Source: Burkholderiales bacterium (lineage in GTDB: Bacteria; Pseudomonadota; Gammaproteobacteria; Burkholderiales; SG8-39). From it: a stretch of 64,000 nt of DNA. The translations under genes and the position numbers were made by a program. Positions 2,913 to 61,363 of the stretch are shown one piece after another (within the stretch, counting starts at the first letter, position 1; every line of letters starts with the position of its first letter). The stretch is from positions 12,005-76,004 of the forward strand of contig JBBRAI010000007.1 of the NCBI GenBank assembly GCA_038206915.1, given 5' to 3'. The notes below the pieces were generated by a model that had not been told where the DNA came from, ran no database searches, and saw only the letters and a program-made list of their open reading frames with translations.

Positions 2913-2926
2913 ATTTATCTGAGGGC

Positions 2927-14686: not shown

Positions 14687-14712
14687 GACATGCTCCTTCG
14701 CTATGCTTGATA

Positions 14713-21296: not shown

Positions 21297-21956
21297 CTAC
21301 GCGGTCGCGGTTTCGGCCTGGCGCATGGCGTCTAGCAGCGCCTGCGCTCCCTGCGCGCCGGACACCGCGACTTTGCCGTTGAAAATGAAGAACGGCACGC
21401 CCTGCACGCCGATGGCGCGCGCGCGCTGGTCTTCGCTTTCTACCGCTTTGCGCGACTGCGGGTCGTCCAGGCATTGCTCCGCCTGCGTCCGGCCCAGACC
21501 GGCGACGGCGGCGATGGCAACCAGGTTTTCCGCTTTGGTCAAGTCGACGCCGTCGAGGAAGTAGGCGCGAAGCAGGGCCTCTTTGACCCGGTCCTGCAAT
21601 TCATCGGTGCCAGCCGGATCTGCGCCGGCGAGCGCGATCAAGCTGTGCGCCGCGACGGTGTTGGGCTGGCGCACGATCCTGTCGAAGGCGAACGCAATGC
21701 CGTTCTCGACGCCGACCGCGGTGACCCGTGCATAGACGTCTTTCGCGCGCGCGGCACCGAATTTCTGCAGCACGTAGTCCTGCCGGCTCATGCCCTCGGG
21801 CGGCAACTGCGGATTAAGCTGAAACGGCCGCCAGTGTATTCGCGGCTTATCCTCGCCGGCGTGTTCCTGCGCGTACAGCGCGAGCGCCGCCTCGATCTGG
21901 CGCTTGCCTATGTAGCACCAAGGGCAGACCACGTCGGAAATGATGTCGATGTTCAT
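21297..21956 (-). CDS. DsbA-family oxidoreductase (FrnE / 2-hydroxychromene-2-carboxylate isomerase-like)
   Basis: 219 aa starting MNIDIISDVVCPWCYIGKRQ (CPWC active site). No signal peptide. Confidence 0.85.
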   Translation of the reverse strand: MNIDIISDVVCPWCYIGKRQIEAALALYAQEHAGEDKPRIHWRPFQLNPQLPPEGMSRQDYVLQKFGAARAKDVYARVTAVGVENGIAFAFDRIVRQPNTVAAHSLIALAGADPAGTDELQDRVKEALLRAYFLDGVDLTKAENLVAIAAVAGLGRTQAEQCLDDPQSRKAVESEDQRARAIGVQGVPFFIFNGKVAVSGAQGAQALLDAMRQAETATA

Positions 21957-22062
21957 ATTGGTCTCCTTGCGCGTGCCGGCTTGCTGCCGACGGGGATGAG
22001 GGTTGCCGCGGCGATGCCTCATGGGCGGCGCGGCAAGCATGCTCGCTACCTTACTACATTAG

Positions 22063-35936: not shown

Positions 35937-36230
35937 TTAGGCATCCTTCGCGTGCGGCTTCGGTGCGTTCATCAGCGAGGGCGTGACGCGCGAACGCGCC
36001 AGATACTCGCGCAGTATCTTGATTGCCGAGCGGTCCAGCGTAGTTCCATGGTGCGGGCGGTGCAGCACATCCTCGTGGCCGTTGAGTTTGACGCGCAGGC
36101 GCGCGCCCGAAAGCGATTCGACTTCAGCACCCAGATGATGCAGCAGCGACTCGATCTCGCGCCAGTGGATATTGCCCGTGATCGGATCGCGGAATATCGC
36201 CTCGATCAGGTGCTCGTGCTTGTGGCTCAT
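35937..36230 (-). CDS. Hypothetical protein with HicA/YcfA-like pattern (orphan)
   Basis: 97 aa (MSHKHEHLIEAIF...). The segment LGAEVESLSGARLRVKLNGHEDVLHRPHHGTTLDRSAIKILREYL resembles the HicA beta-sheet/helix core by eye. No HicB partner is present. Confidence 0.45.
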   Translation of the reverse strand: MSHKHEHLIEAIFRDPITGNIHWREIESLLHHLGAEVESLSGARLRVKLNGHEDVLHRPHHGTTLDRSAIKILREYLARSRVTPSLMNAPKPHAKDA

Positions 36231-36513
36231 GGCGGGCGCCTCCGTACCGGAGTGGGTCTGCGCCCATGATAGCCAAGCCGGCCAGCACTGCAAGCGTCCC
36301 GGCGGTCAGGGTCAGGGGCAGGGCCAGCGTCGAGAGGAGCAGAAGCATCAACAGGCGCTGCACAGGCCTGCTCCATATCCGATGATTCTTGTCGCGCGCG
36401 GCCACGATGCGCGCTCCTGCGGGAATTCACGGACCCGGGCGGGAATCATCGCAGGCAGCACCCGATATTGGCCGCTGCCCGCGGCGATTCGCACCCTTGT
36501 GAACGCAAGCTGC

Positions 36514-36747
36514 CTATTTTTTCATTTCGTCCTTGGCCATGGAATCCTTCTTCATGGCGTCCTTCTTCATGCCGTCGTTTTTCATGCTGTCTTTTTTCAT
36601 CGTGTCTTTCTTCATGCTGTCTTTTTTCATCTCCTCTTTGGCCATGTTGTCTTTGGCCATCGCATCTTTCTTCATGTCGTCAGCGAGCGCGTTGCCGCCG
36701 GCAAGCAGCAGGCTGATGGAAAGCAGGGTTGCAGTGGTCTTGATCAT
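36514..36747 (-). CDS. Secreted methionine-rich pentapeptide-repeat (MXKDX) protein, MrpX-like
   Basis: 77 aa. Signal peptide MIKTTATLLSISLLLAGGNALA, then 11 consecutive M-x-K-(D/E)-x pentapeptides (11 Met in 55 mature residues). Confidence 0.85.
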   Translation of the reverse strand: MIKTTATLLSISLLLAGGNALADDMKKDAMAKDNMAKEEMKKDSMKKDTMKKDSMKNDGMKKDAMKKDSMAKDEMKK

Positions 36748-36815
36748 GGTGATCTCCTCGTTTAGTGGTTGGATGGGTGGACGGCGGTAAAGCCGGTGTA
36801 TCAGGGCAGCCGAGC

Positions 36816-37595
36816 TCAGCTGCCGCCGAACCAGTTGTACCCCTGGTCTTCCCAGTAGCCCCCGGGGTAGGTGTTGGTGACGAAGATCGCCTGGATGTGC
36901 TTCGGATTCTTGTAGCCGAGCTTGGTCGGCATGCGCAGCTTCATCGGAAAGCCATACTTGGGCGGCAGCTGCGCGCCGTCGTAGGTGAGCGTCAGCAGCG
37001 TCTGCGGGTGCAGCGCGGTGGGCATGTCGATGCTGGTGTAGTAATCGTCGGCGCACTTGAAGCCGATGTACCTCGCGCTGGTGTCGGCGCCGACGCGGGC
37101 GAGGAAGTCCGAAAAACGCACGCCGCCCCATTTGCCGATCGCGCTCCAGCCTTCGACGCAGATGTGGCGCGTTACCTGGTCGGTCTGCGGCAGCGCGTTG
37201 AGTTCGGGCAGCGTCCACATGCGTTTGTCGGCGACCATGCCGCCGACTTCCAGACGGTAGCCCGCCGCATCCACCTCGCGGATCTCGTCCTCGCCGTAGT
37301 AGGCGTTGAATGGAAACGGCCGTGTGATCATCGATTCTGGATAGGTCGGCGCGAGCTGATTCGGATCGAACAGCCAGCCCTGCACCCGGTCGTTGAAGCG
37401 CGACACTGTTGTCAGCGCCTGATCGACGCCGTCCTCGTCGGAGATCGCGCAGCCGGTCAGCAGCGACAGGCCGCCGAGCGTGAGTGAACGGCGCAGAAAC
37501 AGGCGTCGCGCGGGCTGCTCGAGGCGGCGCAGCGCCTCCTTCACCACGGCATCGCCGTCCAGCGTCAGTCGTTTGGAAGACTTGAGTATTTTCAT
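36816..37595 (-). CDS. Molybdopterin-dependent oxidoreductase of the YedY/MsrP (sulfite-oxidase fold) family, Tat-exported lipoprotein
   Basis: 259 aa. Twin-arginine leader ARRLFLRRSLTLGGLSLLTGC with lipobox, Mo-ligand Cys context HICVEGWS, and GFPMKLRMPTKLGYKNPKHI. Confidence 0.8.
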   Translation of the reverse strand: MKILKSSKRLTLDGDAVVKEALRRLEQPARRLFLRRSLTLGGLSLLTGCAISDEDGVDQALTTVSRFNDRVQGWLFDPNQLAPTYPESMITRPFPFNAYYGEDEIREVDAAGYRLEVGGMVADKRMWTLPELNALPQTDQVTRHICVEGWSAIGKWGGVRFSDFLARVGADTSARYIGFKCADDYYTSIDMPTALHPQTLLTLTYDGAQLPPKYGFPMKLRMPTKLGYKNPKHIQAIFVTNTYPGGYWEDQGYNWFGGS

Positions 37596-37604
37596 GTTGG
37601 CTCC

Positions 37605-38201
37605 TCAGCGGCCGCGGATCATGGCGAGCAATGTGCGTGGTACCAGCGCCACCATCGCCAGGTGCACCGCGACAAACGCGACCATCGCTGCCATGGCGAA
37701 GAAATGCACGCGGCGTGCGTTTTCGTAGCCGCCCAGCAATTCGCGCAGCAGCGGAAACTGCACTGACTTCCACAGCACCAGGCCCGACAGCACTAGCAGG
37801 ACCGCGTCGACAATCACGAACAGGTAGGCGGCGCGCTGCACCGCGTTGTAATGGCTCAGGTCGTCGTGCGCCAGCTTGCCGCGCAGCGCGTCCACTAGAT
37901 CGGCAATGATCGCGCGCGGCGACAGCGGGAAGAACTTTCGCACGATACGTCCGGTCGCGGCATTGCACAACAGATACACCAGGCCGTTCGCGGCGAGCAG
38001 CCACATCGCGGCAAAATGCCACTGGATTGCGCCGCCGAGCCAGCCGCCGAGCGTAATGTCCTTGGCGAACTTGAAATCGTACAGGGGAGAGGCGTTGTAG
38101 ATGCGCCAGCCGCTCGTGACCATGATCACAACCGCGAGCGCGTTTAGCCAGTGCGTCGCGCGCAGCCAGGCCGGGTGGACTATGCGGTCAGTCTGGTTCA
38201 T
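37605..38201 (-). CDS. Membrane b-type cytochrome (cytochrome b561 / Ni-Fe-hydrogenase b-subunit-like)
   Basis: 198 aa, 4-5 TM segments. Conserved His in TM helices (RATHWLNAL, QWHFAAMW, RRVHFFAM, VAVHLAM). 9-nt gap to the Mo-enzyme gene. Confidence 0.75.
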   Translation of the reverse strand: MNQTDRIVHPAWLRATHWLNALAVVIMVTSGWRIYNASPLYDFKFAKDITLGGWLGGAIQWHFAAMWLLAANGLVYLLCNAATGRIVRKFFPLSPRAIIADLVDALRGKLAHDDLSHYNAVQRAAYLFVIVDAVLLVLSGLVLWKSVQFPLLRELLGGYENARRVHFFAMAAMVAFVAVHLAMVALVPRTLLAMIRGR

Positions 38202-38220
38202 GTCTTCGCTCCGCCCGAAT

Positions 38221-39003
38221 TCAGGACGCTGCGCATTGGCGCGCGCTCAGAGCCTGCAGCACCCCGCCGCTGCGTTCGTCCTGCACGAACGCGACCAGTT
38301 CCAGCCGCGCGCGGTTCCAGTCCGCGGGCAGGGCGATCTCACGCTGCACCTTCGCCGCGCCCGCGACGAGGCGCACAGGTCCGATCCACGCACGCACCAC
38401 GTGATCGTGCTTGAGGGTGGAGCCGCTGTTCTCGCCGCGCGTCACGCTCGACGCGAGGCCGCTCTCGGCAAGCGCCAGATACAGCGCCGCCGGGCCGGCC
38501 GCGGCAAGTGTTTTGGCTTCGGCATCGAGTGTAAGCGAGCCATCGGCTGCGACCGCGGCGCGCACATGGATGGCAGCCGCGGCAGGCGCAGCGTTCAGTT
38601 GCCGAACCTTGTCCGCCAGCGCGCCGCGCCAGGAGCGCAGCTCCGCGCCGCCAACGAAGAACTGGGGCGTATAGACGGTGTCGTGCCGGTTGGTGTGTAC
38701 CAGCCAGCTCTGGCGCTGCTCGAACGCGCTTTGCGCATACGGGTCCTTCCAGCCGATGTAGTCCCAATAGCCGACGTGCAGGGCGAGCGGCACCACAGTG
38801 GCGGTTGGGTCCAGCACCTGGTGCAGGCGGCTGAGCTGCTGATCCGCCGGCGGGCAGCTGGAGCAGCCTTCCGAAGTATAGAGTTCTACCAGCGCCGCGG
38901 TCTTCGGACCGCTTTGCGCTTCACAGGCGGCGAAGCCCGTAAGCGGCAGGGTCGCCGCAAGCGTTGCAACCACCGTACGATGGGCGATACGACGCAGATT
39001 CAT
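38221..39003 (-). CDS. DUF1223-family secreted thioredoxin-like protein (CxxC)
   Basis: 260 aa starting MNLRRIAHRTVVATLAATLPLTGFAA (signal peptide). VELYTSEGCSSCPPAD and HVGYWDYIGWKDPY are the DUF1223 hallmarks as I recall them. Confidence 0.8.
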   Translation of the reverse strand: MNLRRIAHRTVVATLAATLPLTGFAACEAQSGPKTAALVELYTSEGCSSCPPADQQLSRLHQVLDPTATVVPLALHVGYWDYIGWKDPYAQSAFEQRQSWLVHTNRHDTVYTPQFFVGGAELRSWRGALADKVRQLNAAPAAAAIHVRAAVAADGSLTLDAEAKTLAAAGPAALYLALAESGLASSVTRGENSGSTLKHDHVVRAWIGPVRLVAGAAKVQREIALPADWNRARLELVAFVQDERSGGVLQALSARQCAAS

Positions 39004-39060
39004 GGGCAATTCGCCTCCTTTGGCAGTGAAAATCCAGCGCGCTTGTGCTCTCAGGGCTAG

Positions 39061-39087
39061 TTCGCCGGCCGCCGACGAACGGTTACA
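39061..39087 (-). promoter_or_regulatory. ECF-type promoter TGTAACC-N16-CGAA upstream of the DUF1223 operon
   Basis: Minus strand reads tgtaacc gttcgtcggcggccgg cgaa ctagcc. It lies 58 nt upstream of the DUF1223 ATG and has the same motif and spacing as the two sites at 40377-40489. Confidence 0.65.
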
Positions 39088-39141
39088 CGGCGGAGCGAAT
39101 CGCAGCCGATTCCACGCAGCGCGATTACGCCCGCGCACGGA

Positions 39142-39774
39142 CTACCTGTCGCCCCAGACCTCGTGTACCCGGGCGTCGCGGCCGCAGCCGGCGCGGTAGT
39201 ACGAGTAGCGAATCGGGTTCTTCTTGTAGTAGCCCTGGTGATATTCCTCCGCCGGGTAGAACGCGGAAGCGGCAACGACTTCCGTATACACATGCGGCAG
39301 CTTGCCGCTCTTGACCAGTGCGTCGCGGCTCGCGTCGGCGATTTTACGCTCAGTTTCGTTCTGCCAGAAGATGGCGCTGCGGTATTGCGTGCCGACGTCG
39401 CAGAACTGGCGATCTTTCACTGTCGGGTCGATGTGGTGCCAGAAGTAGTCGACCAGCTGCCGATAGCTGACTTTGGCCGGGTCGTAGCGAACACGCACCG
39501 CCTCGGCATGACCGGTGCTGCCGGCGCTGACCTGTGCGTAGGTGGGATTCGGCGTCCTGCCGCCGGTATAACCCGATTCCGCGTCGATCACGCCCGGCAG
39601 CTTCTCGAAGTCCGCTTCCAGACACCAGAAGCAGCCGCCGGCAAAAATAGCGTTCGCCGTGCCGCTGGCACCCGACGCGGCGCCCGCCGGCGCGGCGGCT
39701 GCGGCAAGACCCGCGCCGCCCAGCAGCAGCAACAACGCAGCGACAAAACCGGCCACGCGCACACCCGCCCTCAT
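39142..39774 (-). CDS. msrA: Peptide-methionine (S)-S-oxide reductase MsrA, exported form
   Basis: 210 aa. N-terminal hydrophobic leader (MRAGVRVAGFVAALLLLLGGAGLAAAAA), catalytic GCFWC, and the MsrA core GHAEAV...YHQ.Y. Confidence 0.9.
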   Translation of the reverse strand: MRAGVRVAGFVAALLLLLGGAGLAAAAAPAGAASGASGTANAIFAGGCFWCLEADFEKLPGVIDAESGYTGGRTPNPTYAQVSAGSTGHAEAVRVRYDPAKVSYRQLVDYFWHHIDPTVKDRQFCDVGTQYRSAIFWQNETERKIADASRDALVKSGKLPHVYTEVVAASAFYPAEEYHQGYYKKNPIRYSYYRAGCGRDARVHEVWGDR

Positions 39775-40286
39775 GCGCGCAACTCCGGCAGTTTATCCGT
39801 GCGCAACACGAAATTCAGCGCCACGCCGTTGTTGCAATAGCGTTTGCCGGTGGGTGCCGGACCATCGTCGAAGACGTGGCCCTGGTGCCCGCCGCAACGC
39901 GCGCAGTGATATTCGGTGCGCGGAAAGAGCAATTTGTAGTCGGTTCTGGTGGTCACGGCGCCGGGCAGCGGTCGCCAGAAACTCGGCCAGCCGGTACCAC
40001 TGTCGTACTTGGCGCTGCTGTCGAACAGCGGCAGACTGCACGCGGCGCAGACGAAGGTGCCGTCGTGCTTTTCCTGGTTCAGCGGGCTGCTGCCGGGGCG
40101 TTCCGTTGCTTCATCGAACAGCACGCGATACGCCGCCGCCGGCAGCAGAGCGGCCCATTCGGCCTTAGTCTTGCGCAGCGCCGGCCCGGCGCCATCGGCC
40201 GCGCCGGCCGCGCCGGCGTTGATTATGTGCAGTGCTGACAGGCCCGACAGGCCGAACAGCCATTTGAGGGAGCGACGACGGTCCAT
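39771..40286 (-). CDS. msrB: Peptide-methionine (R)-S-oxide reductase MsrB, exported form (Tat-like leader)
   Basis: 171 aa. MDRRRSLKWLFGLSGLSALHII leader, Zn CxxC pairs (CAAC, CARC), GWPSF and catalytic RYCNNG. ATGA overlap with msrA. Confidence 0.9.
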   Translation of the reverse strand: MDRRRSLKWLFGLSGLSALHIINAGAAGAADGAGPALRKTKAEWAALLPAAAYRVLFDEATERPGSSPLNQEKHDGTFVCAACSLPLFDSSAKYDSGTGWPSFWRPLPGAVTTRTDYKLLFPRTEYHCARCGGHQGHVFDDGPAPTGKRYCNNGVALNFVLRTDKLPELRA

Positions 40287-40376
40287 GACATTCTCCGGAT
40301 GATTCTGCCTCTATACATTTATGCGACGGCGCGCTTCACTCGGGCAGCGTTGCGTTCGGCGCGATATGGAGGCTAG

Positions 40377-40403
40377 TTCGGCGCGAACTGGCGTGCGGTT
40401 ACA
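40377..40403 (-). promoter_or_regulatory. ECF-type promoter TGTAACC-N16-CGAA upstream of msrB-msrA
   Basis: Minus strand reads tgtaacc gcacgccagttcgcgc cgaa ctagcc, about 90 nt upstream of the msrB ATG. It shares even the flanking ctagcc with the 39061 site. Confidence 0.65.
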
Positions 40404-40462
40404 TGCTGGTGCACAATTAAATCCCCGGCGGCGGGCACGTATCCGACTTTTTTCCAGCAGCT

Positions 40463-40489
40463 TGTAACAAAAGGCGTCGATGGAGCGAA
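40463..40489 (+). promoter_or_regulatory. ECF-type promoter TGTAACA-N16-CGAA (putative autoregulated sigma promoter)
   Basis: Plus strand reads tgtaaca aaaggcgtcgatggag cgaa. The -10 element overlaps codons 3-4 of the track ORF for the sigma factor. Confidence 0.55.
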
Positions 40490-41052
40490 TGCAAGGGACA
40501 GCCCGGCTGAACGCGGGCGAAAACAGGCTGAAGCTACTCCTGTTGCGCGGGCTTTCCGGCGAGGAGTCGGCCTATCACGCGTTCCTGCAGGAGTTGAGCG
40601 CGCATTTGCGCGCTTTCCTGAGGCGGCGCCTGGCGCGCTTGCCGGACGAAGTGGAGGACCTGGTGCAGGAATCGCTGCTGGCGGTACACAACCAACGTCA
40701 TACCTACGACGCGGGCCAGCCGCTGACGGCGTGGGTGCACGCGATCGCAAAGTACAAGCTGGTGGATCTGCTGCGCCGGCGTTCGAAACGCGAACTGCTC
40801 AGCGATCCGCTGGACGAGGAGTTCGGTCTGGCCGCGGCCTCGGACACGGATGCCGCGGATGCGCGCCGCGATCTGGGCCGGCTGCTGGCGCGCCTGCCCG
40901 AACGCCAGCGCCTGCCCATCGTGCATATGAAACTCGAGGGTCTGTCGGTGGCGCAGACCGCCGAGCTCACGGGCATGTCGGCCTCCGCAGTCAAGGTAGG
41001 CGTACATCGCGGCCTGAAGGCGCTGGCGGCGATGATACGAGAGGCGCCATGA
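40480..41052 (+). CDS. sigF: ECF RNA polymerase sigma factor (SigF-type, partner of NrsF)
   Basis: Sigma-70 region 2 ([20 protein letters not shown]...[19 protein letters not shown]) and region 4 ([44 protein letters not shown]). The 5' end is uncertain because of the promoter overlap. The name is inferred from the NrsF partner. Confidence 0.8.
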
Positions 41053-41690
41053 GAACCGAAGAGCTGGTCAGCATGCTTGCGACCGGTGCCGGCGCGGTAG
41101 CGCCGAACCAGGTCGCGCGCCGCCATGCGCTTGCGCTGGGATGGGGCATTCTGGGCGCCGCGCTGCTGATGGCCATCCTGCTCGGCCCGCGCCCTGATCT
41201 TGCCCGGGCGGTTCTGCTGCCCATGTTCTGGGTGAAGCTCGTGTTTGTCGCGTGCATCGCGGCGGGCAGCCTGGCCGCGGCGCTGCGACTGGCGCGCCCG
41301 GGGCGCAAGCTTGCCTGGGTGCCGGCAGCGGTGGCCGCGCCGGTGCTCGCGATCTGGCTGCTTTCGATGATCGTGCTGGTGCCAGCCGAGGCGGCGCAGC
41401 GCGAAATACTGTTCTTCGGTAGTACCTGGGACGTATGCCCGTTCCTGATCGCCACCTTGTCGGTGCCCGGATTTGTCGCGGCGATGTGGGCGATGCAGGG
41501 ACTTGCGCCCACTCGCCTGCGTCTCGCCGGCGCGGCGGCAGGGCTGTTTGCCGGATCCATGGGCGCGCTGGTGTACTGCCTGCACTGTCCGGAAATGGGC
41601 GCGCCTTTCATCGGTGTCTGGTATCTGCTCGGCATGCTGATACCTGCTGCCGCCGGCGCGCTGCTCGGTCCGCGCCTGCTGCGCTGGTAG
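41049..41690 (+). CDS. nrsF: NrsF-family (DUF1109) membrane anti-sigma factor
   Basis: 213 aa starting [17 protein letters not shown]. Six TM segments and a conserved Cys pair region (VCPF, CLHCPEM). ATGA overlap with the sigma gene. Confidence 0.8.
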
Positions 41691-44393: not shown

Positions 44394-45536
44394 TTAGCTG
44401 AACACCGCCGGCGCGAGCTTTGTCAGCGCTTGCTTACGCGAAATCGATGTGCCTGCGAGCGCAAAACCAAGCAGCTTGCCGCTTGCATCCTCGAATCTGG
44501 CCTCGATTCCGTCCGCTTCCGGATTCAGCTTCCAGCTGCCCGCAAGCGCCGCCGGCGGGCAAACCACCAGCGGCAGCGCCGGGGTCTTCACCACCACCGG
44601 CATGGCGGAATAGGTAACCGGCGTCGCCGTTCCCGCCAGCGTCTGCGCCAAAGCGCGCGCTGCCTGCATCAGCGGCAGCACGTAGGGCAGCGTCTGGCCA
44701 TCGACCTCGGCGCAATCACCCAGGGCATACACGTTTGCCGCGCTGGTCTGCAGCAGGCGGTCGGTGACGATGCCGCGATTGACCTTCAATCCCGCGCGCT
44801 GCGCCAGCCGCACGCGCGGGCGCAAGCCGATTGCGCTGAGCACCACGTCAGTCTTCAGCATCGTCCCGTCGGCGAGCTCTACGTGCAATCCTGCGGCATC
44901 GCGCTTTACCGCGCGCGCCGTGGTCCCCAGGTGCCAGCTTACGCCGGCGGCAGCCAGTGCATGCTGCAGGCGCTCGGCTACCGCCTCGGGCAACAGCCGG
45001 CCCAGTGGCCGCTGTGCCGGGTCGATCACCGCTACACGATAGCCGGCAGCGAGGAGGTCGTTGGCGAACTCGCAGCCGATAAGTCCCGCGCCCAGCAGCA
45101 CCACGCTTTGCTTGCCTTCGATGGCGGCGCGAAAGCTCGCATACGCCGCCAGGTCGTTGACGCGCAACACTTCGTGTGCGGCATCGCCTTGCAGCGCCAG
45201 TTCTATCGGGTCGGCGCCCAGCGCGAGCACCAGCTTCGCGTAGCGTATCGGCGCGCCCGCGACCTGCACCGTGCGCCGGCCGGTATCTATTGCTTCGACC
45301 TCGGCGCCGGCGATAATCCGCGCTTTGAGTTGAACGGCCATTTGTTCGGCTGCGGCGCTCGCGATCTGCGCCGCCGCTTTTCCCGCTGCCAGCGCATTCG
45401 ACAGCATCGGCTTGGAATAGAAACTCGCGTCGTCCCGGCTCAGGATCACCAGCGGCGTGAACTGATCGAGCTTGCGCAGTTCGCGGGCCACGGTGTAGCC
45501 CGCGAGCCCGCTGCCGATGATGAGCACCGGATCCAC
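44394..45536 (-). CDS. NAD(P)/FAD-dependent oxidoreductase, rubredoxin-NAD+ reductase-like
   Basis: 380 aa with a GTG start. Two dinucleotide folds (IIGSGLAGY, LLGAGLIGCEFA). The start is 1 nt downstream of the rubredoxin stop. Confidence 0.85.
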   Translation of the reverse strand: MDPVLIIGSGLAGYTVARELRKLDQFTPLVILSRDDASFYSKPMLSNALAAGKAAAQIASAAAEQMAVQLKARIIAGAEVEAIDTGRRTVQVAGAPIRYAKLVLALGADPIELALQGDAAHEVLRVNDLAAYASFRAAIEGKQSVVLLGAGLIGCEFANDLLAAGYRVAVIDPAQRPLGRLLPEAVAERLQHALAAAGVSWHLGTTARAVKRDAAGLHVELADGTMLKTDVVLSAIGLRPRVRLAQRAGLKVNRGIVTDRLLQTSAANVYALGDCAEVDGQTLPYVLPLMQAARALAQTLAGTATPVTYSAMPVVVKTPALPLVVCPPAALAGSWKLNPEADGIEARFEDASGKLLGFALAGTSISRKQALTKLAPAVFS

Positions 45537-45537
45537 T

Positions 45538-45717
45538 TCAGGCCGCCACCGAGCCGGCTTCTACCATTTCGAAATCGGCCTTGGCCACGCCGCAATCGGG
45601 GCAGGACCAGTCAGCCGGGATGTCCTCCCAGCGCGTTCCCGCGGCGACGCCGTCCTCCGGCATTCCCCTTGCTTCGTCATAGATGAAACCGCACACCACA
45701 CATTGCCATGTCTTCAT
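45538..45717 (-). CDS. Rubredoxin
   Basis: 59-aa ORF absent from the track (below 60 aa): [59 protein letters not shown]. Two CxxCG knuckles. Confidence 0.9.
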
Positions 45718-45746
45718 TTGTTCGCTCCTTGCTGTCGGTAGATTGA

Positions 45747-46217
45747 TTAGTGCTGCGCCTTGGCCAGCGCCGCCTTGTATTGGTTGGCGTGGCGCTCCTC
45801 GACCTTGGCCAGCGCGGCAAATCGCTTGGCCGCCTTCTCCAGCGTGCTGCGGAAGGACTGCGCGTGTTCTTTCGATTCGGCGATCTGCTCGTCGAATTCC
45901 TTTACCGCCGGGGTGTTGCCCTCTTCGACGGCGAGGTGGCGGAATTTCGGGTACATCTCGGTGTACTCGTAGGTTTCACCCTCGATGGCGATCTCCAGCG
46001 CCCGTGCCGGGCTGAGCCCGGACTTGGGATAGAGCAGGTCGAGATGGCCGAAGGCGTGCTGCACGTCCTGATCGGCGGTTTCCGCGAACACGCGCGCGGT
46101 AGCCTCGTCACCGGCTGCGCGAGCGAGTTTGGCGAAATAGCGGTATTTGATGTGCGCCATGCTCTCGCCGGCAAATGCCGCCTCGAGGTTCTGGATGGTG
46201 ATGGATTCCGGTTTCAT
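45747..46217 (-). CDS. Rubrerythrin-family diiron protein (no rubredoxin domain)
   Basis: 156 aa. Four-helix ferritin-like protein with ExxH motifs ([16 protein letters not shown]) and the EGETYEY region. Confidence 0.85.
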
Positions 46218-46257
46218 GTCTGGCTCCTTTGAAATGGGATGAACGTGCTACGGGACC

Positions 46258-46280
46258 GATTATGGCCGCTAGACATAATC
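46258..46280. promoter_or_regulatory. LysR/OxyR-type box: 7-bp perfect inverted repeat GATTATG-N9-CATAATC
   Basis: Located in the 107-bp divergent region between the rubrerythrin gene and oxyR. It has T-N11-A geometry. Confidence 0.55.
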
Positions 46281-46324
46281 GAGTCTAACGACTAATATTG
46301 TTAAACTTGATCGGATATGTCGAT

Positions 46325-47278
46325 ATGCCTGTCCTGCCTTCCCTGCGCCAGCTCGGCTACCTCGTCGCGCTGGCGCAGCACCTCAATTTCACCCGCGCCG
46401 CCGCGGCCTGCTTCGTTACGCAGTCCACGCTCAGCGCCGGGCTGAAGGAGCTGGAGGCGACGCTTGGCGCGATGCTGGTCGAGCGCGACCGGCAAAGCGT
46501 GCTCATGACGCCGCTGGGGCTGGAAGCGGCAACGCGCGCGCGCCAGTTGCTCGCCGCGGCGGAGGACCTGGTCCAACTCGCCGCAGCGTCGGCCCAGCCG
46601 ATGACAGGCGCGCTGCGCCTGGGCGCGATTCCGACGCTCGCGCCTTTCCTGCTGCCGCACATCCTTCCCGGTCTGCGCGCGAAATACCCGCAGCTGAAGC
46701 TGTTGCTGCGCGAGGACGTCAGCGCCAACCTGCTGCAGCGCCTTGCGGACGGACAGCTCGATTTCGTGCTGCTGGCCTTACCGTTCGATACCGGGGATAT
46801 GCAAGTGCGTGCGTTGTTCGACGACGAGTTCTGGCTGGTCGGGCGCGAGGACGACCCGGCGCTCAAGGCCAGGCGCGCAAGCGTCAGCGCACCGGTTGCG
46901 GAGCGGCTGCTGCTGCTGGAGGAGGGCCACTGCCTGCGCGAGCACACGCTCGCCGCCTGTGCCGGCCGCGAGCCCTCCAGCCGCTCCGGCGTGGAAGCTA
47001 CCAGCCTGCTGACGCTGGTGCAGATGGTCGAATCGGGCATCGGCCTTGCGCTGGTGCCGGAGATCGCGCTGAACAGCGGCTTGCTCAAGGGAACCAAACT
47101 CGTCGCGCGGCCGCTGACTTCGCCGGCTCCGAAGCGCACCATAGCGCTGCTGGCGCGGCGCTCCAGTGCGCGGCAGGCAGAGCTAGCGGCGCTGGGCGAA
47201 TTCATCGAAGCCGCGCGCCGACAGGATCACTATGCCGTCAGCACGTCCAGGGGACGGCGGCGTCCTTCACACCAATAG
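46325..47278 (+). CDS. oxyR: LysR-family hydrogen peroxide sensor OxyR
   Basis: Starts MPVLPSLRQLGYLVALAQHLNFTRAA. The redox Cys pair sits in the canonical context LLEEGHCLREHTLAAC (Cys199/Cys208 equivalents). Confidence 0.85.
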   Translation: MPVLPSLRQLGYLVALAQHLNFTRAAAACFVTQSTLSAGLKELEATLGAMLVERDRQSVLMTPLGLEAATRARQLLAAAEDLVQLAAASAQPMTGALRLGAIPTLAPFLLPHILPGLRAKYPQLKLLLREDVSANLLQRLADGQLDFVLLALPFDTGDMQVRALFDDEFWLVGREDDPALKARRASVSAPVAERLLLLEEGHCLREHTLAACAGREPSSRSGVEATSLLTLVQMVESGIGLALVPEIALNSGLLKGTKLVARPLTSPAPKRTIALLARRSSARQAELAALGEFIEAARRQDHYAVSTSRGRRRPSHQ

Positions 47279-49704: not shown

Positions 49705-50127
49705 CTACTTGCGCTGGCGCAGCTTGCGGATCGCCGCGATCTGGGCCGAGGCTTCGGCGAGTTCGGCCACCGCCTTGGCGTACTCCATCTTGCCGCTTCG
49801 ATCCTGCAGGCTTTCCCTGGCGCGCTTTTGCGCCTCCAGCGCCTTGGCTTCGTCCAGGTCGTGGCCTCGGATAGCGGTGTCCGCCAGCACCGTAATCAGG
49901 TTGGGCTGCACCTCGAGGATGCCGCCGGCGACGAATATCAATTCTTCCTCGCCACCGCTTGCGGGCTTGATACGTACGGTACCCGGCTTGATGCGGGTGA
50001 TCAGTGGAGTGTGCTTCGGGAAGATCCCAAGCTCGCCCTCTTCGCCGGGCAGCACCACGAATTCGGCCTCGCCGGAATAAATGGCTTCTTCCGCGCTGAC
50101 GACGTCTACGTGAATTGTGTGTGCCAT
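49705..50127 (-). CDS. atpC: F0F1 ATP synthase subunit epsilon
   Basis: 140 aa. [35 protein letters not shown]. Last gene of the atp operon. Confidence 0.95.
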
Positions 50128-50183
50128 AAGACTTAGAACCTCTTTTCACCGACACCGGTCCAGCCCGGTGTCGTCTCTTGTTA

Positions 50184-51572
<1,389 letters not shown>

Positions 51573-51614
51573 CTAAGTGTTCAATATCAAAATTCGGTTG
51601 GCCAGCGGCATGCG

Positions 51615-52478
51615 CTAGACCGCCGCGGCGCCTGCGACAATTTCCGACAGTTCCTTGGTGATCGCCGCCTGGCGCGACTTGTTGTAGATCAGCGTCAGTT
51701 CATCGATGACGCTGCCGGCGTTGTCGCTCGCAGCCTTCATCGCTACCATGCGCGCGCTCTGCTCTGAGGCCATGTTTTCGGCCACCGCCTGGTAGATCAA
51801 GGCTTCGATGTAGCGCGTGAGCGTTTGGTCGAGCACCGACTTGGCGTCCGGCTCATACAGGTAATCCCAGGAACCTGCGGGAGCGCCGAGCCGCTCGCCC
51901 GACAGCGGCAGCAGCTGCTCCATCACCGGCTCCTGCTTCATGGTGTTGACGAACTTGGTGTAGAAAATCTCCAGGCGGTCGAAGCGGTCCTCGATATAGC
52001 CGTCGAGCATTACCTTGAGCGCGCCGATCAGCCGCTCCATGTTCGGCCTGTCGCCCATGCCGATCACGTGCGATACCACGTTGGCGCCCAGGCGCTGCAT
52101 GAAGCCCAGGCCCTTGTTGCCGATGCAACACACCTCGAAGCTCTCGCCCTGCGATTCCCACTCGCGCATCTTCGCCAGCGCCATGCGCAGCACGTTGGTG
52201 TTCAGGCCGCCGCACAGGCCCTTGTCTGCGGTCACGACAATGATGCCGACTTTCTTCACCGTGTCGCGCGCTACCAGATAGGGGTGGCGGTATTCAGGAT
52301 TGGCGTAGGAGAGGTGGGCTGCGACGTTGCGGATCTTTTCGGCATACGGACGCGCCGCGCGCGTGCGCTCCTGCGCCTTGCGCATTTTTGAGGCCGCGAC
52401 CATTTCCATCGCCTTGGTGATCTTGCGCGTGTTTTGCACGCTCTTGATCTTGGTCTTGATTTCCTTTGAACCTGCCAT
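51615..52478 (-). CDS. atpG: F0F1 ATP synthase subunit gamma
   Basis: 287 aa. [36 protein letters not shown]. Confidence 0.95.
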
Positions 52479-52500
52479 TCCTCTACCTTTCTGCCAACGC

Positions 52501-52540
52501 CCCTCACCCTAACGCTCTCCCCGCTCGCGGGGAGAGGGGA
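52501..52540. repeat. REP-like GC hairpin in the atpG-atpA spacer
   Basis: ccctcaccctaacg-ctctccccg-ctcg-cggggagag-ggga. A 9-bp stem of the 'ctctcccc...ggggagag' type that is common as intergenic repeats in proteobacteria. Confidence 0.5.
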
Positions 52541-52546
52541 TTTCAG

Positions 52547-54091
<1,545 letters not shown>

Positions 54092-54129
54092 GCTATCTCC
54101 TGAACCTTAAGTATTGTCGCGCTGTTGGG

Positions 54130-54669
54130 CTAGATCGCAAGCAGGCCCGCGGCCATTGCATTGAGCTTGGCGCGTACCGAGCCGTCGATGACTTCGTCGC
54201 CCACTACCACGCGCACGCCGCCAATGAGCTCGTGCTCGATGCGCACCTTGGGGTTTATCTTTCGCTTGAAGCGCTTTTCCAGTTCGGCCACCAGGCTCGC
54301 GAGCTGTGCCGCGTCCAGTTCGAACGCGGTGCTGATCTCGGCGTCGACCACGCCTTCGCGTTGATTCTTCAGCGTCTCGAATTGCGCGAAAATCTCGGGC
54401 AGCAGCGTAAGCCGGTCGTTATCGATCAGTAATCCGATGAAATTCTTCGCCTCGGTGGAAATACCCTCCGGGGAGACGGACAGGAACAGACCCCGCAGTT
54501 GCGCCGGGGTCAGGTCGTAGGTCGCCAGGCATTCCTGCATCGCGGGATGTCCGGCTGCCTGCGCCAACCTGCGCAGCGTACTCGACCAGGCGGGGAGTGT
54601 GGCGCCCGCGTCGGCAAGACGGAACACCGCTTCGGCGTAAGGGCGCGCCAGAGTTGCGATCTCGGCCAT
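54130..54669 (-). CDS. atpH: F0F1 ATP synthase subunit delta
   Basis: 179 aa. OSCP/delta family (MAEIATLARPYAEAVF). Confidence 0.92.
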   Translation of the reverse strand: MAEIATLARPYAEAVFRLADAGATLPAWSSTLRRLAQAAGHPAMQECLATYDLTPAQLRGLFLSVSPEGISTEAKNFIGLLIDNDRLTLLPEIFAQFETLKNQREGVVDAEISTAFELDAAQLASLVAELEKRFKRKINPKVRIEHELIGGVRVVVGDEVIDGSVRAKLNAMAAGLLAI

Positions 54670-54676
54670 GGTGGGC

Positions 54677-55147
54677 CTATAGCTCCCGCTTCAACTGGTT
54701 GAGCAGATCGGCGTGCGCCTGCGCGTTCACTTCGCGCTGCAGAATCTTTTCGGCACCGCTCACTGCAAGCGCCGCCACCTGTTCGCGCAGCGCCTCCTTG
54801 GCGCTCGAAACTTCCTGCTGAATCTCGGATTTGGCGCCGGCAAGCAGTCGATCGCCCTCGGCTTTGGCCGAATTCTTCGCTTCTTCGATCATTTGCAGGC
54901 CGCGTTTTTCCGCCTGCGCAATAATCTCCGCGGCACGCGCACGCGCCTTGACCGACTCTTCGGCAGCGAGCTTCCCCGACGCTTCGAGCTCCCGCTTGCC
55001 CTGCTCGCCGGCCGCCAAGCCGTCGGCAATATGTTTTTGCCGATCTTCGATCGCCTTCATCAGCGGCGGCCAGACGAATTTGACCGTAAACAGTATGAAA
55101 AGCGCGAAGGAAATCGCTTGCGCGATCAATGTCAAGTTGATGTTCAT
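54677..55147 (-). CDS. atpF: F0F1 ATP synthase subunit b
   Basis: 156 aa starting [29 protein letters not shown]. Single TM segment plus a long charged helix. Confidence 0.92.
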
Positions 55148-55199
55148 GTTCGAATCCCCTTGCGGCCCACGTCTCGCCAGGACCGACGGTGCAGTCGGG

Positions 55200-56348
<1,149 letters not shown>

Positions 56349-56382
56349 TTATCCGTTTCCAAGGGCGCGCTCTGCGCCAGTC

Positions 56383-56751
56383 CTAATTCTTGTCGCCTAC
56401 GAACAACGCCATGCTGAAAATTAGAAGCGTAATCACGAACGATCCGAGCAAGCCGACGACGACGACGTCCTGATAGGCCGCCAGAACCAGCCATAGCAGC
56501 AGGAATGCAAGGAAAAGTTTGGCCACCTCAGCTTTGACGGCGGCAAAAAGAACCTCCCCGGCAGTTCTACCTCTCTTTGCGGTGCTTTTGGCAGCCATCA
56601 GCACGAACACCAAACCGGCGACGATGCTGATCACGCCGCCCAAAAAAGCCGAAATTGCGCCGTGAACACCCGCAAACCAGGCCGCGAACGACGCGATGAA
56701 TATTGTGGCCAGTACTTGCAACCCGATCACCGGGCGGAACTTTCGCCACAC
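56383..56751 (-). CDS. atpI: ATP synthase protein I
   Basis: 122-aa 4-TM protein in first position of the atp operon. Confidence 0.75.
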   Translation of the reverse strand: MWRKFRPVIGLQVLATIFIASFAAWFAGVHGAISAFLGGVISIVAGLVFVLMAAKSTAKRGRTAGEVLFAAVKAEVAKLFLAFLLLWLVLAAYQDVVVVGLLGSFVITLLIFSMALFVGDKN

Positions 56752-56923
56752 TCGCCGCTATCCTCGCTGCAAATCGGCGAGATTATAGCGGCTATACCGA
56801 AGACCGGTCAATTCGCAATTCCCCTCTTGACGGCGCAATGCCTTGATCCACATCAACATGTATGCTCCGGCTTGAAGGTACCTGCAGCGCCGGTTGAAAT
56901 GATGTTGCAGTGCGAAAACGGCG

Positions 56924-57607
56924 CTAGCGTGGCGATCGCTTTTTCGCCTTGGTCGCAGCTTTCGCGATATCGGTCTTGGAGAAATACCAATCGACATACT
57001 CGTAGCCGGCGCGCGATCTGGCGTCGGCCTCCTTGGCCGTGGTAGGCGGAGGCACAATCACTTTTTCGCCGGGGCACCAGCCCTCCGGCGTTGAAACGGC
57101 GTGCCGATCGCTGGTTTGCAAGGCTTCGACCAATCGCAGTATCTCCTCTACCGACCGGCCATTGGTCATCGGGTAGTAGACCATGGCGCGCACCTTTCCG
57201 TCAGGGTCGATAAAGAACGTCGCTCGCACGGCCGAAGTATCGCTTGCGCCAGGCTGAATCATGCCGTAGTCGTGCGCGATGCGCATCGACAGATCGTCGA
57301 TTATGGGAAACGGGATGTCTACGCCGAATTTTTCCTTGATATTGCGTATCCAAGCCAGATGCGAATAGGCGCTGTCCACCGACAGGCCCAGCAGTTCGCA
57401 GCCCCGCTTCTGGAAGCGCTCGTGGAATTTGGCGAACGCAAGGAATTCGGTGGTGCACACCGGGGTGAAATCCGCCGGGTGGGAAAACAGGATCAGCCAT
57501 TTTCCGCGATAGTCGCGCAGTGAGCGCGGACCGTGGGTGGTCTTGGCGCTGAAATCCGGCGCCGGTTCGTTGATGCGCGGCAGCTTCGCGTTCCAGACAT
57601 TTTCCAT
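56924..57607 (-). CDS. 1-Cys peroxiredoxin (Prx6-like)
   Basis: 227 aa. LFSHPADFTPVCTTE peroxidatic Cys context, no resolving Cys motif, and a basic C-terminal tail. Confidence 0.88.
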   Translation of the reverse strand: MENVWNAKLPRINEPAPDFSAKTTHGPRSLRDYRGKWLILFSHPADFTPVCTTEFLAFAKFHERFQKRGCELLGLSVDSAYSHLAWIRNIKEKFGVDIPFPIIDDLSMRIAHDYGMIQPGASDTSAVRATFFIDPDGKVRAMVYYPMTNGRSVEEILRLVEALQTSDRHAVSTPEGWCPGEKVIVPPPTTAKEADARSRAGYEYVDWYFSKTDIAKAATKAKKRSPR

Positions 57608-57731
57608 CGCGTTCTCCTTTGCGGCGGACTTCTGCTCCGCCCTCTCAGCGTTTGCAGCAAAACGGGAGGATCCCTCGCGCTCACCGAATCTTCACGCGAC
57701 CATCAACCCTTTTTTGCGGGCTCCTATTCGC

Positions 57732-58148
57732 TCAGTCCTGAAAGCGGGCAATGATTTCGGGCGGAATGACACCCGCCTTCAGCCCCTCCGGATCGGCCGG
57801 ATCGCGCAGGCCCCAGACCCTTACCTCGCGACCTTCGACGACGATGTTACCGTTGTTGTGCACCCTGTGCTCGACCACGAAAACCTTGCTGCGCCATTCG
57901 CCGACCCAGCTTTCGATCACGATCTGATCGCCGAAGCGCGACGGGCCGCGGAAGCTGGCGCTCGCGTCTACCAAAGCCACGCCCGCCATCCGGTATTCCG
58001 GAAACATTTGCGCCCAGGGCAGGCCGCGGGAACGAAACATCCTTTCGGTGGCGCGATCGAACCAATCGAAATAACGCGGGTAAAACACGATGCGCGCGGG
58101 GTCGCAGTCGGCGAAATCCACAATAATTTTGAAACGGGAAGGCGTCAT
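57732..58148 (-). CDS. Acyl-CoA thioesterase (4HBT/YbgC-like hotdog fold)
   Basis: 138 aa starting MTPSRFKIIVDFADCDPARIVFYPRYFDWFD, which carries the catalytic Asp context. Confidence 0.82.
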   Translation of the reverse strand: MTPSRFKIIVDFADCDPARIVFYPRYFDWFDRATERMFRSRGLPWAQMFPEYRMAGVALVDASASFRGPSRFGDQIVIESWVGEWRSKVFVVEHRVHNNGNIVVEGREVRVWGLRDPADPEGLKAGVIPPEIIARFQD

Positions 58149-58305
58149 ATCCGCTGGGAAGATAGATTGAATGCGTCGCCCGGGCGCGAACACGCATGCA
58201 GCCGAGGGCCGTATTATGCCGGCTTCTGCCGGGGGCCGATTAGTCCGATGGCCGCGACACCTGTCCGGGATGACAACGCCCGTTGGACAAACTAGACTGA
58301 AAATC

Positions 58306-59052: not shown

Positions 59053-59077
59053 GCGCCGCGCCGTCCCGCCGCGGCTT

Positions 59078-59917: not shown

Positions 59918-59930
59918 TTCGTTTCCCCGT

Positions 59931-60710: not shown

Positions 60711-61363
60711 CGGACGTTTTCCGGCAGCGTTGCCGGCTGTTCGTCTATTTCGATCAGCGCCAGATGCCGCGCTCCGTCCAGGCCGGGGACGGAGAGCGGC
60801 AGCACCCGCCGCACCTTGAATCCCGGCGGCAGCTTGTCTATTTCCTCGTAGGGGTGCAGACCCTTCATAGCCGCAAACAACCCGCCAGGCGCGAGCAAGT
60901 GCCGGGTAACGCGCACGAACTCGCCCATGTCGGAAAAGGCGCGCGAAATGATCACGTCGAAGCGATCCTGCGTTTGCCAGGACTCCACGCGTTCGGCACA
61001 AACTTCGATATTGTCGAGCTTGAGCTCTATCACCGCCTGATTCAGGAACGCGGCCTTCTTGTGATTACTGTCCAGCACGGTCACATGCAGGTCCGGATTC
61101 GCCAGCGCCAGAGGAATGCCGGGCAGCCCGGCGCCGCTGCCGACATCGAGCAGTCGCTTTGCCTGCAGATGCGGTGCCACCGCGAGGCTGTCGAGCAGGT
61201 GGTGGCCGACCATTTTTTCCGGTTCGCGTATGGCGGTCAGGTTGTACACCCGGTTCCACTTGTCTATCAGCGCGATGTAGTCGAGCAAGCGCTGTTGCGT
61301 AGCGTCCGGGAGCGTCAATCCCAGGGCGATGAGTCCGCGCTTGAGCTGATCTGCCGCGTTCAT
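60707..61363 (-). CDS. rsmG: 16S rRNA (guanine527-N7)-methyltransferase RsmG (GidB)
   Basis: 218 aa with SAM motif [20 protein letters not shown] overlaps with both neighbours. Confidence 0.93.

Follow-up and report, generated by a model that had tools for sequence, protein, structure and literature searches.

The locus at positions 36514–41690 of a 64,000-nucleotide (nt) stretch of contig JBBRAI010000007.1 from a Burkholderiales bacterium (the stretch, at its full 64 kb, is called the window below) is in our reading an envelope oxidative-stress regulon under an extracytoplasmic function (ECF) sigma factor of the ECF16 (SigF/EcfF/BcrS) type, built from three effector modules; we put the probability of this reading at about 0.75. 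A preliminary description of the same DNA had taken the locus for an expanded SigF/NrsF methionine-defence system, and the gene set, the promoters, and the conserved clustering of the genes agree with that interpretation. Envelope proteins lie beyond the reach of cytoplasmic repair enzymes; how they are guarded against peroxides, chloramines, and hypochlorite is relevant to disinfection, to immune evasion, and to (per)chlorate respiration. The locus would represent the known ECF16 methionine-cycling system in its most complete modular form, with a sink peptide, a quinol-driven molybdenum (Mo) reductase, and both stereospecific thiol reductases. Judged from sequence comparisons, the defensible new point is that a DUF1223 protein is a conserved member of the ECF16 regulon, and the comparative data, which assign DUF1223 to this regulon in two proteobacterial classes, give the family a testable functional context.

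Regulators, promoters, and gene organization

An open reading frame (ORF) map and domain searches of the window recovered all eight genes of the preliminary description at the coordinates given here. Two units lie on the minus strand. One consists of msrB (39771–40286; TIGR00357, 136.5 bits against a cutoff of 113.05; SelR domain) and msrA (39142–39774; TIGR00401, 193.4 bits against 108.1; PF01625), with the msrB stop codon and the msrA start overlapping by 4 nt. The other begins with a DUF1223 gene (38221–39003, 260 amino acids (aa); PF06764, E = 4.5e-55, 187.3 bits against 30.7; CSSCPP motif), whose true start is ATG 39003 and not GTG 39138, and continues through a membrane b-type cytochrome of the cytochrome b561/Ni_hydr_CYTB family (37605–38201; PF01292, E = 2e-26, 93.2 bits against 30.1) and an MsrP-like molybdopterin oxidoreductase with a sulfite-oxidase fold, of the C3567/YedY1/BcrP type (36816–37595, 259 aa; PF00174, E = 1e-29, 103 bits against 24), to an mrpX-like gene for a 77-aa MXKDX peptide (36514–36747; TIGR02953 penta_MxKDx, 77.6 bits against 41). 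The peptide gene is likewise the last of the cassette in Caballeronia and E. coli (L007 and L009; L-numbers label the homologous loci compared with the window locus). On the plus strand, the gene for the ECF16/SigF-type sigma factor (40480–41052; PF04542 and PF08281; NF009188, 302 bits against 250) overlaps by 4 nt, stop to start, that for the NrsF/DUF1109 membrane anti-sigma factor (41049–41690; PF06532, E = 8e-69, positions 1–204 of 204). The domain models for MrpX, MsrA, MsrB, DUF1223, cytochrome b, and the sigma factor and the Pfam model for NrsF all pass their curated cutoffs, and the hidden Markov model searches that had been recommended as a check each returned a match (PF06764, PF06532, PF00174, and TIGR02953), so that the gene set stands as first proposed.

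The three units share a promoter motif, which lies upstream of msrB-msrA (TGTAACC-N16-CGAA, 40377–40403, minus strand), upstream of DUF1223-cytb-Mo-mrpX (TGTAACC-N16-CGAA, 39061–39087, minus strand), and, as an autoregulatory site, at the start of sigF-nrsF (TGTAACA-N16-CGAA, 40463–40489, plus strand). Written as TGTAAC-N17-CGAA it has exactly three matches in the window, compared to a mean of 0.04 in shuffled sequences, none of which reached three, and the motif without its leading T returns the same three sites only. All three are correctly oriented and lie 58–91 nt 5' of the start codons, except at the sigma gene, where the called ATG falls inside the promoter. The promoter of the DUF1223 unit sits in the 138-bp spacer between msrA and DUF1223, with the −10 element ending 58 nt before the ATG, and the msrB and sigma promoters are placed back to back, an arrangement described for Azospira and Brucella. 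At the sequence level, the motif is the same as the consensus known from the literature for ECF16 (SigF-type) promoters: Caulobacter SigF recognizes GTAACC-N16-CGAA; the Brucella BcrS motif is (T/C)GTAAC-N17-CGAA, with transcription starts and the −35 (TGTAAC) and −10 (GCGAA[A/T]) elements mapped by 5'-RACE (PMC8315932); and a similar motif was obtained for B. japonicum EcfF by primer extension (PMC3420878). Thus two earlier claims hold, that one motif precedes msrB, the sigma gene, and the DUF1223 gene, and that this is an ECF sigma/NrsF locus, the latter as an ECF16 pair with three cognate promoters.

The sigma ORF contains sigma-2 and sigma-4 regions only (Sigma70_r2 and r4_2). Because its called ATG (40480) is located within the spacer of the autoregulatory promoter, transcripts from this site must be translated from a start further downstream; a second ATG (40489) is also within the promoter, in the −10 box. 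The overlap of promoter and sigma start recurs in most homologous loci, and in six homologues codon 10 is ATG, GTG, or TTG. The true start in the window is probably downstream of 40480, with CTG 40507 (codon 10) and TTG 40543 (codon 22) as candidates. In B. japonicum, the mapped ecfF transcription start lies 6 bp after the −10 element, likewise overlapping the annotated ATG, and translation from a distal codon was proposed (PMC3420878). The window NrsF has C130 and C180, which do not vary among 12 homologues and by sequence correspond to C129 and C179 of OsrA; the OsrA cysteines are needed for function, sigma binding, and oxidant-triggered release (PMC3420878).

Exported effectors and the DUF1223 protein

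MsrA and MsrB are predicted to be exported by the Sec and the twin-arginine translocation (Tat) pathway, respectively. MsrA carries a Sec-type leader of about 28 aa ahead of a PMSR domain that begins at residue 42, and MsrB carries the twin-arginine leader MDRRRSLKWLFGLSGLSALHIINAGAAGA ahead of a SelR domain that begins at residue 50. The hydrophobic MsrA leader is kept in the syntenic loci L004, L014, and L015, and the MsrB leader, as MDRR[RQ]SLKWL, in L004, L014, L015, L017, and L029. The Sec-like and Tat-like leaders noted earlier are therefore N-terminal extensions ahead of the catalytic domains, and syntenic homologues retain them. The active site of MsrA (GGCFWC/GCFWC) holds the catalytic and resolving cysteines and thus requires a thiol reductant. 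MsrB has two Zn-type CxxC pairs (CAAC and CARC) and an RYCNN motif, and the Zn-type pairs fit Tat export of a folded protein.

The Mo enzyme begins with RRLFLRR followed by an LLTGC lipobox. Twin arginines and an L[LM][TSA]GC lipobox are present in 37 of 37 distinct homologues with at least 60% identity, indicating that the clade consists of Tat lipoproteins and supporting the twin-arginine leader plus lipobox first described. The nearest solved structure is E. coli YedY (1xdq), a distant match (E = 5e-13) in which the Mo-ligand motif CVEGWS aligns with CVEAWS. The adjacent membrane protein matches PF01292, and the domain search gave no PF01794 (MsrQ) match for it. An identification of the enzyme as a true MsrP is ruled out by the NCBIfam equivalog model for MsrP (NF003767, 72.9 bits against a cutoff of 207) and by the PF01292 partner in place of MsrQ. 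Hence, of the earlier YedY/MsrP-family assignment, the sulfite-oxidase fold, the cysteine ligand, and the Tat leader are retained, whereas the score lies below the MsrP cutoff and the partner is not MsrQ. We consider the enzyme a putative methionine sulfoxide reductase and the cytochrome its presumed quinol-oxidizing electron donor; homologous loci always have the cytochrome gene directly upstream of the Mo gene, and the UPEC counterpart, c3566, carries the annotation 'cytochrome B'. The mrpX product has a Sec-type leader, MIKTTATLLSISLLLAGGNALA, which as read from the sequence is hydrophobic and ends in ALA, and a mature peptide of 55 aa with 11 methionines (20%), 58% charged residues, and nine MxK[DEN]x repeats. 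The methionine content of Azospira MrpX is likewise 20% (PMC4436054).

By sequence comparison, the cassette of cytochrome b, Mo enzyme, and small peptide is widespread and mobile, and the regulators that accompany it differ. The window proteins share 60–63% (Mo enzyme) and 61% (cytochrome) aa identity with E. coli homologues in a matching operon; the cassette is found at ∼64% nucleotide identity in 353 of 5426 E. coli genomes, and a homologue is encoded in 469 plasmid records. The E. coli loci comprise, in this order, a histidine kinase/response regulator pair, a cytochrome b/b6 protein, a molybdopterin-dependent oxidoreductase, and a 73-aa ORF, and fit the published c3564–c3568 genes, the match to strain CFT073 being by description. 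In Caballeronia (L007) the cassette lies under a sigma/DUF1109 pair and its peptide is annotated as an MXKDX protein; on P. fungorum pBIL (L008) it lies in a copper-resistance locus with CueR, CopC/D, a multicopper oxidase, TlpA, and DsbA; and in Sinorhizobium (L173, a S. numidicum plasmid) it lies under a heavy-metal two-component system. The last two contexts hint at a link between metal stress and methionine oxidation. The cassette has been studied as YedZ1Y1-MrpX in Azospira (PMC4436054), BcrXQP in Brucella (PMC8315932), and C3566–C3568 in uropathogenic E. coli (UPEC; PMC8550376), and the cytochrome and Mo enzyme of the window are of this already-studied YedZ1Y1/BcrQP/C3566-67 type, not a new pairing.

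The DUF1223 protein consists of a Sec leader, a thioredoxin-like N-terminal domain with CSSCPP, and a C-terminal Omp28-like beta-sandwich. A C[SDN][ST]C-PP motif is present in all 107 homologues examined, and the family profile matches PDB entry 2axo (Atu2684; E = 5e-25), a structure of the widespread DUF1223 family solved in 2005. The best Foldseek matches of the AlphaFold2 (AF2) model (predicted local distance difference test score (pLDDT) 72.8, predicted template modelling score (pTM) 0.75) are HBP35 of P. gingivalis (5y1a, E = 1e-9), 2axo, and Omp28 (2r2c). Of the structural neighbours whose function has been studied, HBP35 is the closest, and it is reported to possess thioredoxin activity (PMC2907840). 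In the model, the CxxC follows strand 37–44 and precedes helix 53–63, with local pLDDT below 50, and an invariant T112-P113 stands before strand 114–117. The N- and C-terminal cysteines occur together in 99 of the 107 homologues and are both missing in 5, a pairing that argues for a structural disulfide, probably C27-C257, and not for a lipobox. A lipoprotein with FAAC as its lipobox is also ruled out by the AxA signal-peptidase I sites in homologues. The literature searched yielded nothing on the bacterial function of DUF1223, and the Azospira paper does not mention it (PMC4436054), in line with the earlier statement that its role is undescribed; DUF1223 is the only truly undescribed part of the locus.

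The gene set, the consensus promoters, the export signals, the sensor cysteines, and the DUF1223 CxxC are evident in the sequence itself. By analogy with homologous systems we infer oxidant-triggered release, regulon induction, and a methionine sink that is regenerated. NrsF, a membrane anti-sigma factor with two conserved cysteines, would sequester the sigma factor. [quoted passage not shown] Sec-exported MrpX would act as a sacrificial methionine sink. The Tat-exported Mo lipoprotein, receiving quinol electrons through the b-type cytochrome, would reduce methionine sulfoxides of MrpX and of envelope proteins, and by a second route the stereospecific thiol enzymes MsrA (Sec) and MsrB (Tat) would do the same. 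With lesser confidence, DUF1223, as a soluble periplasmic protein, may provide a thiol-disulfide arm that either recycles MsrA/MsrB or reduces oxidized envelope cysteines, with electrons from the housekeeping DsbD (1125–2966), in parallel to the co-regulated Bll1026/Bll1027 pair of B. japonicum. The model draws on experiments in other organisms: yedY1Z1-mrpX of Azospira is SigF-dependent and induced by chlorite and hypochlorite, not by hydrogen peroxide (H2O2), and its MrpX is oxidized by reactive chlorine species (PMC4436054); bcrXQP of Brucella confers resistance to hypochlorous acid (HOCl; PMC8315932); and c3566 and c3567 mutants of UPEC are oxidant-sensitive (PMC8550376).

Conservation, precedents, and alternative explanations

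We examined the conservation of the cluster in a census centred on NrsF (80 metagenomic loci, with counts based on the 31 that have at least 4.5 kb upstream of sigF) and another centred on DUF1223 (80 species-representative genomes, 36–76% identity). A neighbourhood census had been suggested with the preliminary description, and the clustering proves conserved in related genomes while the flanking genes vary. The eight-gene set recurs with differing flanks in L004–6, L015, L017, L094, L107, and L109. This full arrangement occurs with or without the internal DUF1223 promoter, and the module order is permuted in L017; across the homologous loci this promoter is present in L004–6, L094, L107, and L109 and absent from L014, L015, and L095. 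Simpler variants contain msrBA only (L099) or the DUF1223-cassette only (L013 and L020). Recurrence with changed flanks, permuted order, and reduced variants points to modular assembly of ECF16-dependent units. Among the 31 NrsF loci, cytb-Mo-mrpX is present in 16, msrA in 10, DUF1223 in 9, and msrB in 7; 4 have essentially the full set, and 11 have none of these genes.

In the DUF1223-centred census, DUF1223 is followed directly by cytb-Mo-mrpX in L013, L015, L017, L020, L023, and L056, lies within 8 kb of sigF/nrsF in nine loci, and adjoins msrA/B in eight; an ECF16 motif is located shortly upstream of it in about ten. In many Betaproteobacteria this motif lies 36–162 nt upstream of the DUF1223 start. 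ECF16-preceded DUF1223 genes also occur with no sigF nearby (L001, L022, and L075). Exported MsrA/B adjoin DUF1223 in L016, L029, and L063, the last as a fused exported MsrAB; MXKDX peptides adjoin it in L018, L019, L113, L116, L175, and L179; and in a metagenome-assembled genome (MAG) of Sulfurifustis (L067, 6152–8729) it is divergent from a canonical 322-aa MsrP with a 205-aa MsrQ. The alphaproteobacterial instances of an ECF16 motif before DUF1223 are in Rhizobium and Bradyrhizobium (L011, L175, L176, and L179). In R. rhizogenes the ECF16-preceded gene is divergent from a cytb-Mo operon carrying its own motif, in R. leguminosarum (L176, 2574–4606) from a thioredoxin-CcdA operon, and in Bradyrhizobium (L175, 3863–5011; L179, 5946–7051) the motif is followed by DUF1223 and then by an MXKDX peptide. 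An all-against-all clustering of ORFs returned only the Mo enzyme, cytochrome b, MrpX, sigF/nrsF, and Msr as cross-lineage DUF1223 neighbours; neither DsbD nor CcdA was a recurrent neighbour among the 80 species loci, in a clustering dominated by spurious high-GC ORFs. For the EcfF-dependent 'hypothetical' genes blr7741 and bll6527 of B. japonicum USDA110 as possible DUF1223 genes, a homology search and a cluster look-up returned no accession of that strain.

Several of these loci show further arrangements. Similar weak Mo-enzyme matches lie beside DUF1223 in L027, L035, and L065. In a betaproteobacterial MAG (L001, 6400–10189), the ECF16-promoted DUF1223-cytb-Mo operon comes after genes for a thioredoxin and a weakly AhpD/CMD-like protein and two small ORFs; this operon lacks MrpX, and sigF is absent within 8 kb. 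In three loci of the Burkholderia/Caballeronia type (L043, 5921–8735; L059, 4017–8666; L151, 6353–9170), sigF stands before two nrsF paralogues in tandem, with an ECF16 motif ahead of each, and DUF1223 comes next with a motif of its own.

Like the window locus, the Azospira suillum PS SigF/NrsF-YedZ1Y1-MrpX system (Melnyk et al. 2015, PMC4436054) has divergent sigF-nrsF and effector operons whose SigF promoters stand back to back; it includes a membrane partner, a Mo enzyme exported by Tat, and an exported peptide equally rich in methionine, and a cycling of sacrificial methionine was proposed for it. The window adds exported msrB-msrA with their own promoter and a DUF1223 gene heading the cassette; unlike the Azospira system it does not appear to lie in a perchlorate-reduction island, as no pcr or cld genes were seen in its annotated parts. 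The link between the two cassettes rests on the UPEC homologue and on published homology statements. Brucella melitensis BcrS/AbcS-BcrXQP (PMC8315932) shares the ECF16 sigma/DUF1109 pair, autoregulation, an MXKDX peptide with a Q/P pair, and induction by as well as resistance to HOCl, but its gene order is X-Q-P compared to cytb-Mo-X in the window, and neither msrA/B nor DUF1223 is reported in its regulon. UPEC OrhK/OrhR-C3566/C3567/C3568 (PMC8550376) has the same order of cytochrome b, Mo enzyme, and small Met-rich peptide, whereas its regulation is by a two-component system, its stimulus is H2O2, it shares a transcript with hlyCABD, and it includes no DUF1223 or msrAB. In B. japonicum, EcfF/OsrA (PMC3420878) is an ECF16/DUF1109 pair with the two conserved cysteines and the same overlap of sigma ATG and mapped start, and its regulon contains three peptide methionine sulfoxide reductases together with the periplasmic thioredoxin Bll1026 and the CcdA protein Bll1027, which were proposed to feed periplasmic Msr; its targets, however, are scattered on the chromosome, and its thiol arm is a TlpA-like thioredoxin with CcdA, not DUF1223 as far as annotated.

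E. coli MsrPQ (YedYZ) resembles the Mo module in its sulfite-oxidase-fold enzyme with a cysteine ligand, Tat export, and membrane haem b donor, and its induction by reactive chlorine species for periplasmic methionine sulfoxide repair is akin to the role proposed here. The window enzyme nevertheless differs in being shorter (259 versus 334 aa), a lipoprotein, and far under the MsrP cutoff, with a PF01292 cytochrome b561-type partner compared to the PF01794 MsrQ of E. coli. For the thiol enzymes, the parallels are Neisseria PilB and Haemophilus influenzae MsrAB, thiol-dependent MsrA/MsrB that likewise act outside the cytoplasm; these are MsrA-MsrB fusions, whereas the window has separate genes with Sec and Tat leaders and a stand-alone thioredoxin-fold DUF1223. 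PilB presumably also bears a fused thioredoxin domain. If it is true that DUF1223 reduces the exported MsrA and MsrB, this would explain how stand-alone periplasmic Msr enzymes are recycled without such a fused domain. One report links the H. influenzae periplasmic MsrAB to hypochlorite resistance (PMC9404787), and the EcfF/OsrA paper cites control of Neisseria MsrAB by an ECF-type sigma/anti-sigma pair (PMC3420878).

These precedents bear on novelty. The preliminary description had held the combined architecture and the role of the cytochrome to be undescribed, and both claims are overstated. Exported msrA/msrB beside sigF/nrsF were reported in perchlorate-reduction islands (Melnyk & Coates 2015); YedY-type enzymes were already linked with MrpX, SigF/NrsF, and msrA/msrB in publications; and control of three methionine sulfoxide reductases and a periplasmic thioredoxin/CcdA pair by EcfF/OsrA was shown experimentally in B. 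japonicum (Masloboeva 2012), so that, with the cassette, most of the combined architecture has published precedent. As for the cytochrome, this partner has been studied before as YedZ1, BcrQ, or C3566, and deletion of c3566 causes oxidant sensitivity (PMC8550376).

Several observations weigh against the regulon reading or parts of it. For this organism, the reading rests on sequence and on homologous systems. The window's sigma ORF has CTG at codon 10, the position at which homologues probably start. NrsF reaches 134.9 bits on its NCBIfam equivalog model against a cutoff of 300 and thus belongs to the DUF1109 family without being a strict equivalog of the Caulobacter protein; the Mo enzyme falls short of the MsrP equivalog cutoff as described above, and the literature surveyed contains no in vitro methionine sulfoxide reductase assay for an enzyme of exactly this clade. 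ECF16 stimuli differ between organisms: Azospira responds to reactive chlorine species but not to H2O2, B. japonicum to singlet oxygen and H2O2, and Caulobacter to Cr and Cd. As for DUF1223, the AF2 pLDDT is below 50 at residues 45–49 around the CxxC, the protein is found with each reductase type and also alone, without a single fixed partner, and the cluster contains no dedicated membrane reductant (CcdA/DsbD). Most of the 80 DUF1223 loci are unlinked to the system within 8 kb, and the distant ones mostly stand alone.

Coincidence of motifs and clustering, with the genes as independently regulated housekeeping repair genes, is extremely improbable. A scan of the locus found 0 sigma-70 promoters and terminator-like sites at chance level, such that neither sigma-70-type promoters nor convincing terminators delimit the units, which favours this view; but the three exact and correctly oriented matches against 0.04 expected, the conserved motif positions in homologous loci of two proteobacterial classes, and the constancy of the gene set while flanks change speak against it, and the shuffles and the conserved positions effectively refute a coincidental motif. 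It is also unlikely, if less so, that the cassette serves mainly in copper or heavy-metal defence, with the Met-rich peptide as a sponge for Cu(I) or other metals and the Mo enzyme and cytochrome in metal-linked redox chemistry. The peptide weakly matches the copper-resistance protein CopI (E = 0.001), the P. fungorum and Sinorhizobium cassettes lie in the metal-related contexts described above, and Caulobacter SigF responds to Cr and Cd. The window cassette, however, is under ECF16 control alongside three methionine sulfoxide reductases, and the Azospira operon responds to chlorite and hypochlorite, with MrpX as a target of reactive chlorine species. Moreover, copper stress itself oxidizes methionine, which E. 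coli MsrPQ is reported to repair (PMC9302797), so the metal and oxidant readings overlap and are not mutually exclusive.

Within the ECF16 regulon reading, the place of DUF1223 can be stated only tentatively: in Alpha- and Betaproteobacteria it may be a periplasmic, thioredoxin-like enzyme devoted to this regulon, acting as the reductant of MsrA/MsrB or as a cysteine-repair arm parallel to methionine repair. Conceivably it is instead an independent cysteine-repair or scavenging enzyme of the regulon (a DsbG-like protector of periplasmic cysteines that HOCl has sulfenylated, a thiol peroxidase, or a chloramine reductase) and not the MsrA/MsrB reductant, a possibility that also falls short of even odds. 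Such independence would suit the single-gene DUF1223 units with their own ECF16 promoter (L022, L043, L059, and L075), the six loci in which DUF1223 is paired with an MXKDX peptide alone, those in which it accompanies cytb-Mo with no msrA/B nearby (L001, L013, L020, L023, and L056), and a Bosea DUF1223 gene situated among DsbA-family and peroxiredoxin genes. A reductant of MsrA/MsrB is favoured, on the other hand, by the direct contact of DUF1223 with exported MsrA/B genes in the window and in L016, L029, and L063, by the need of exported thiol-dependent Msr for a periplasmic reductant, of which the regulon holds no other, and by the B. japonicum precedent, where the co-regulated thioredoxin/CcdA pair has the reductant job (PMC3420878).

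Genomic surroundings

The window carries the atp operon, parB, gidB, and gidA (49705–63309) and thus represents an origin-proximal chromosomal region, here of an uncultured betaproteobacterium. Its housekeeping genes of envelope thiol-redox chemistry encode a full-length DsbD (1125–2966, minus strand), a DUF255/Thioredox_DsbH protein (10901–12979, minus strand), and a DsbA-like protein (21297–22040, minus strand), and Lgt (15885–16664, plus strand) belongs to lipoprotein housekeeping. The motif search of the 64-kb window placed no ECF16 motif near any of these four genes. The DsbD could feed a periplasmic thioredoxin-like DUF1223.

Other redox genes are scattered in the window, none of them tied to the cluster by a promoter motif. 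Oxidative-stress genes near the locus, at 44394–47278 and 56924–57607, encode a rubredoxin-reductase-like flavoprotein, a rubrerythrin, a LysR regulator in divergent orientation, and an AhpC/1-Cys peroxiredoxin. An Rfam scan of the window returned no matches. Directly downstream of mrpX lies a HicA-toxin-like ORF (35937–36293, minus strand; PF07927, at the gathering score), for which no obvious HicB partner was called. Finally, an 859-aa ORF (13004–15583, minus strand) has dihydroxy-acid dehydratase domains from residue 334 only and a GC content at third codon positions (GC3) of 0.72, the lowest of the set; its start is probably over-extended.

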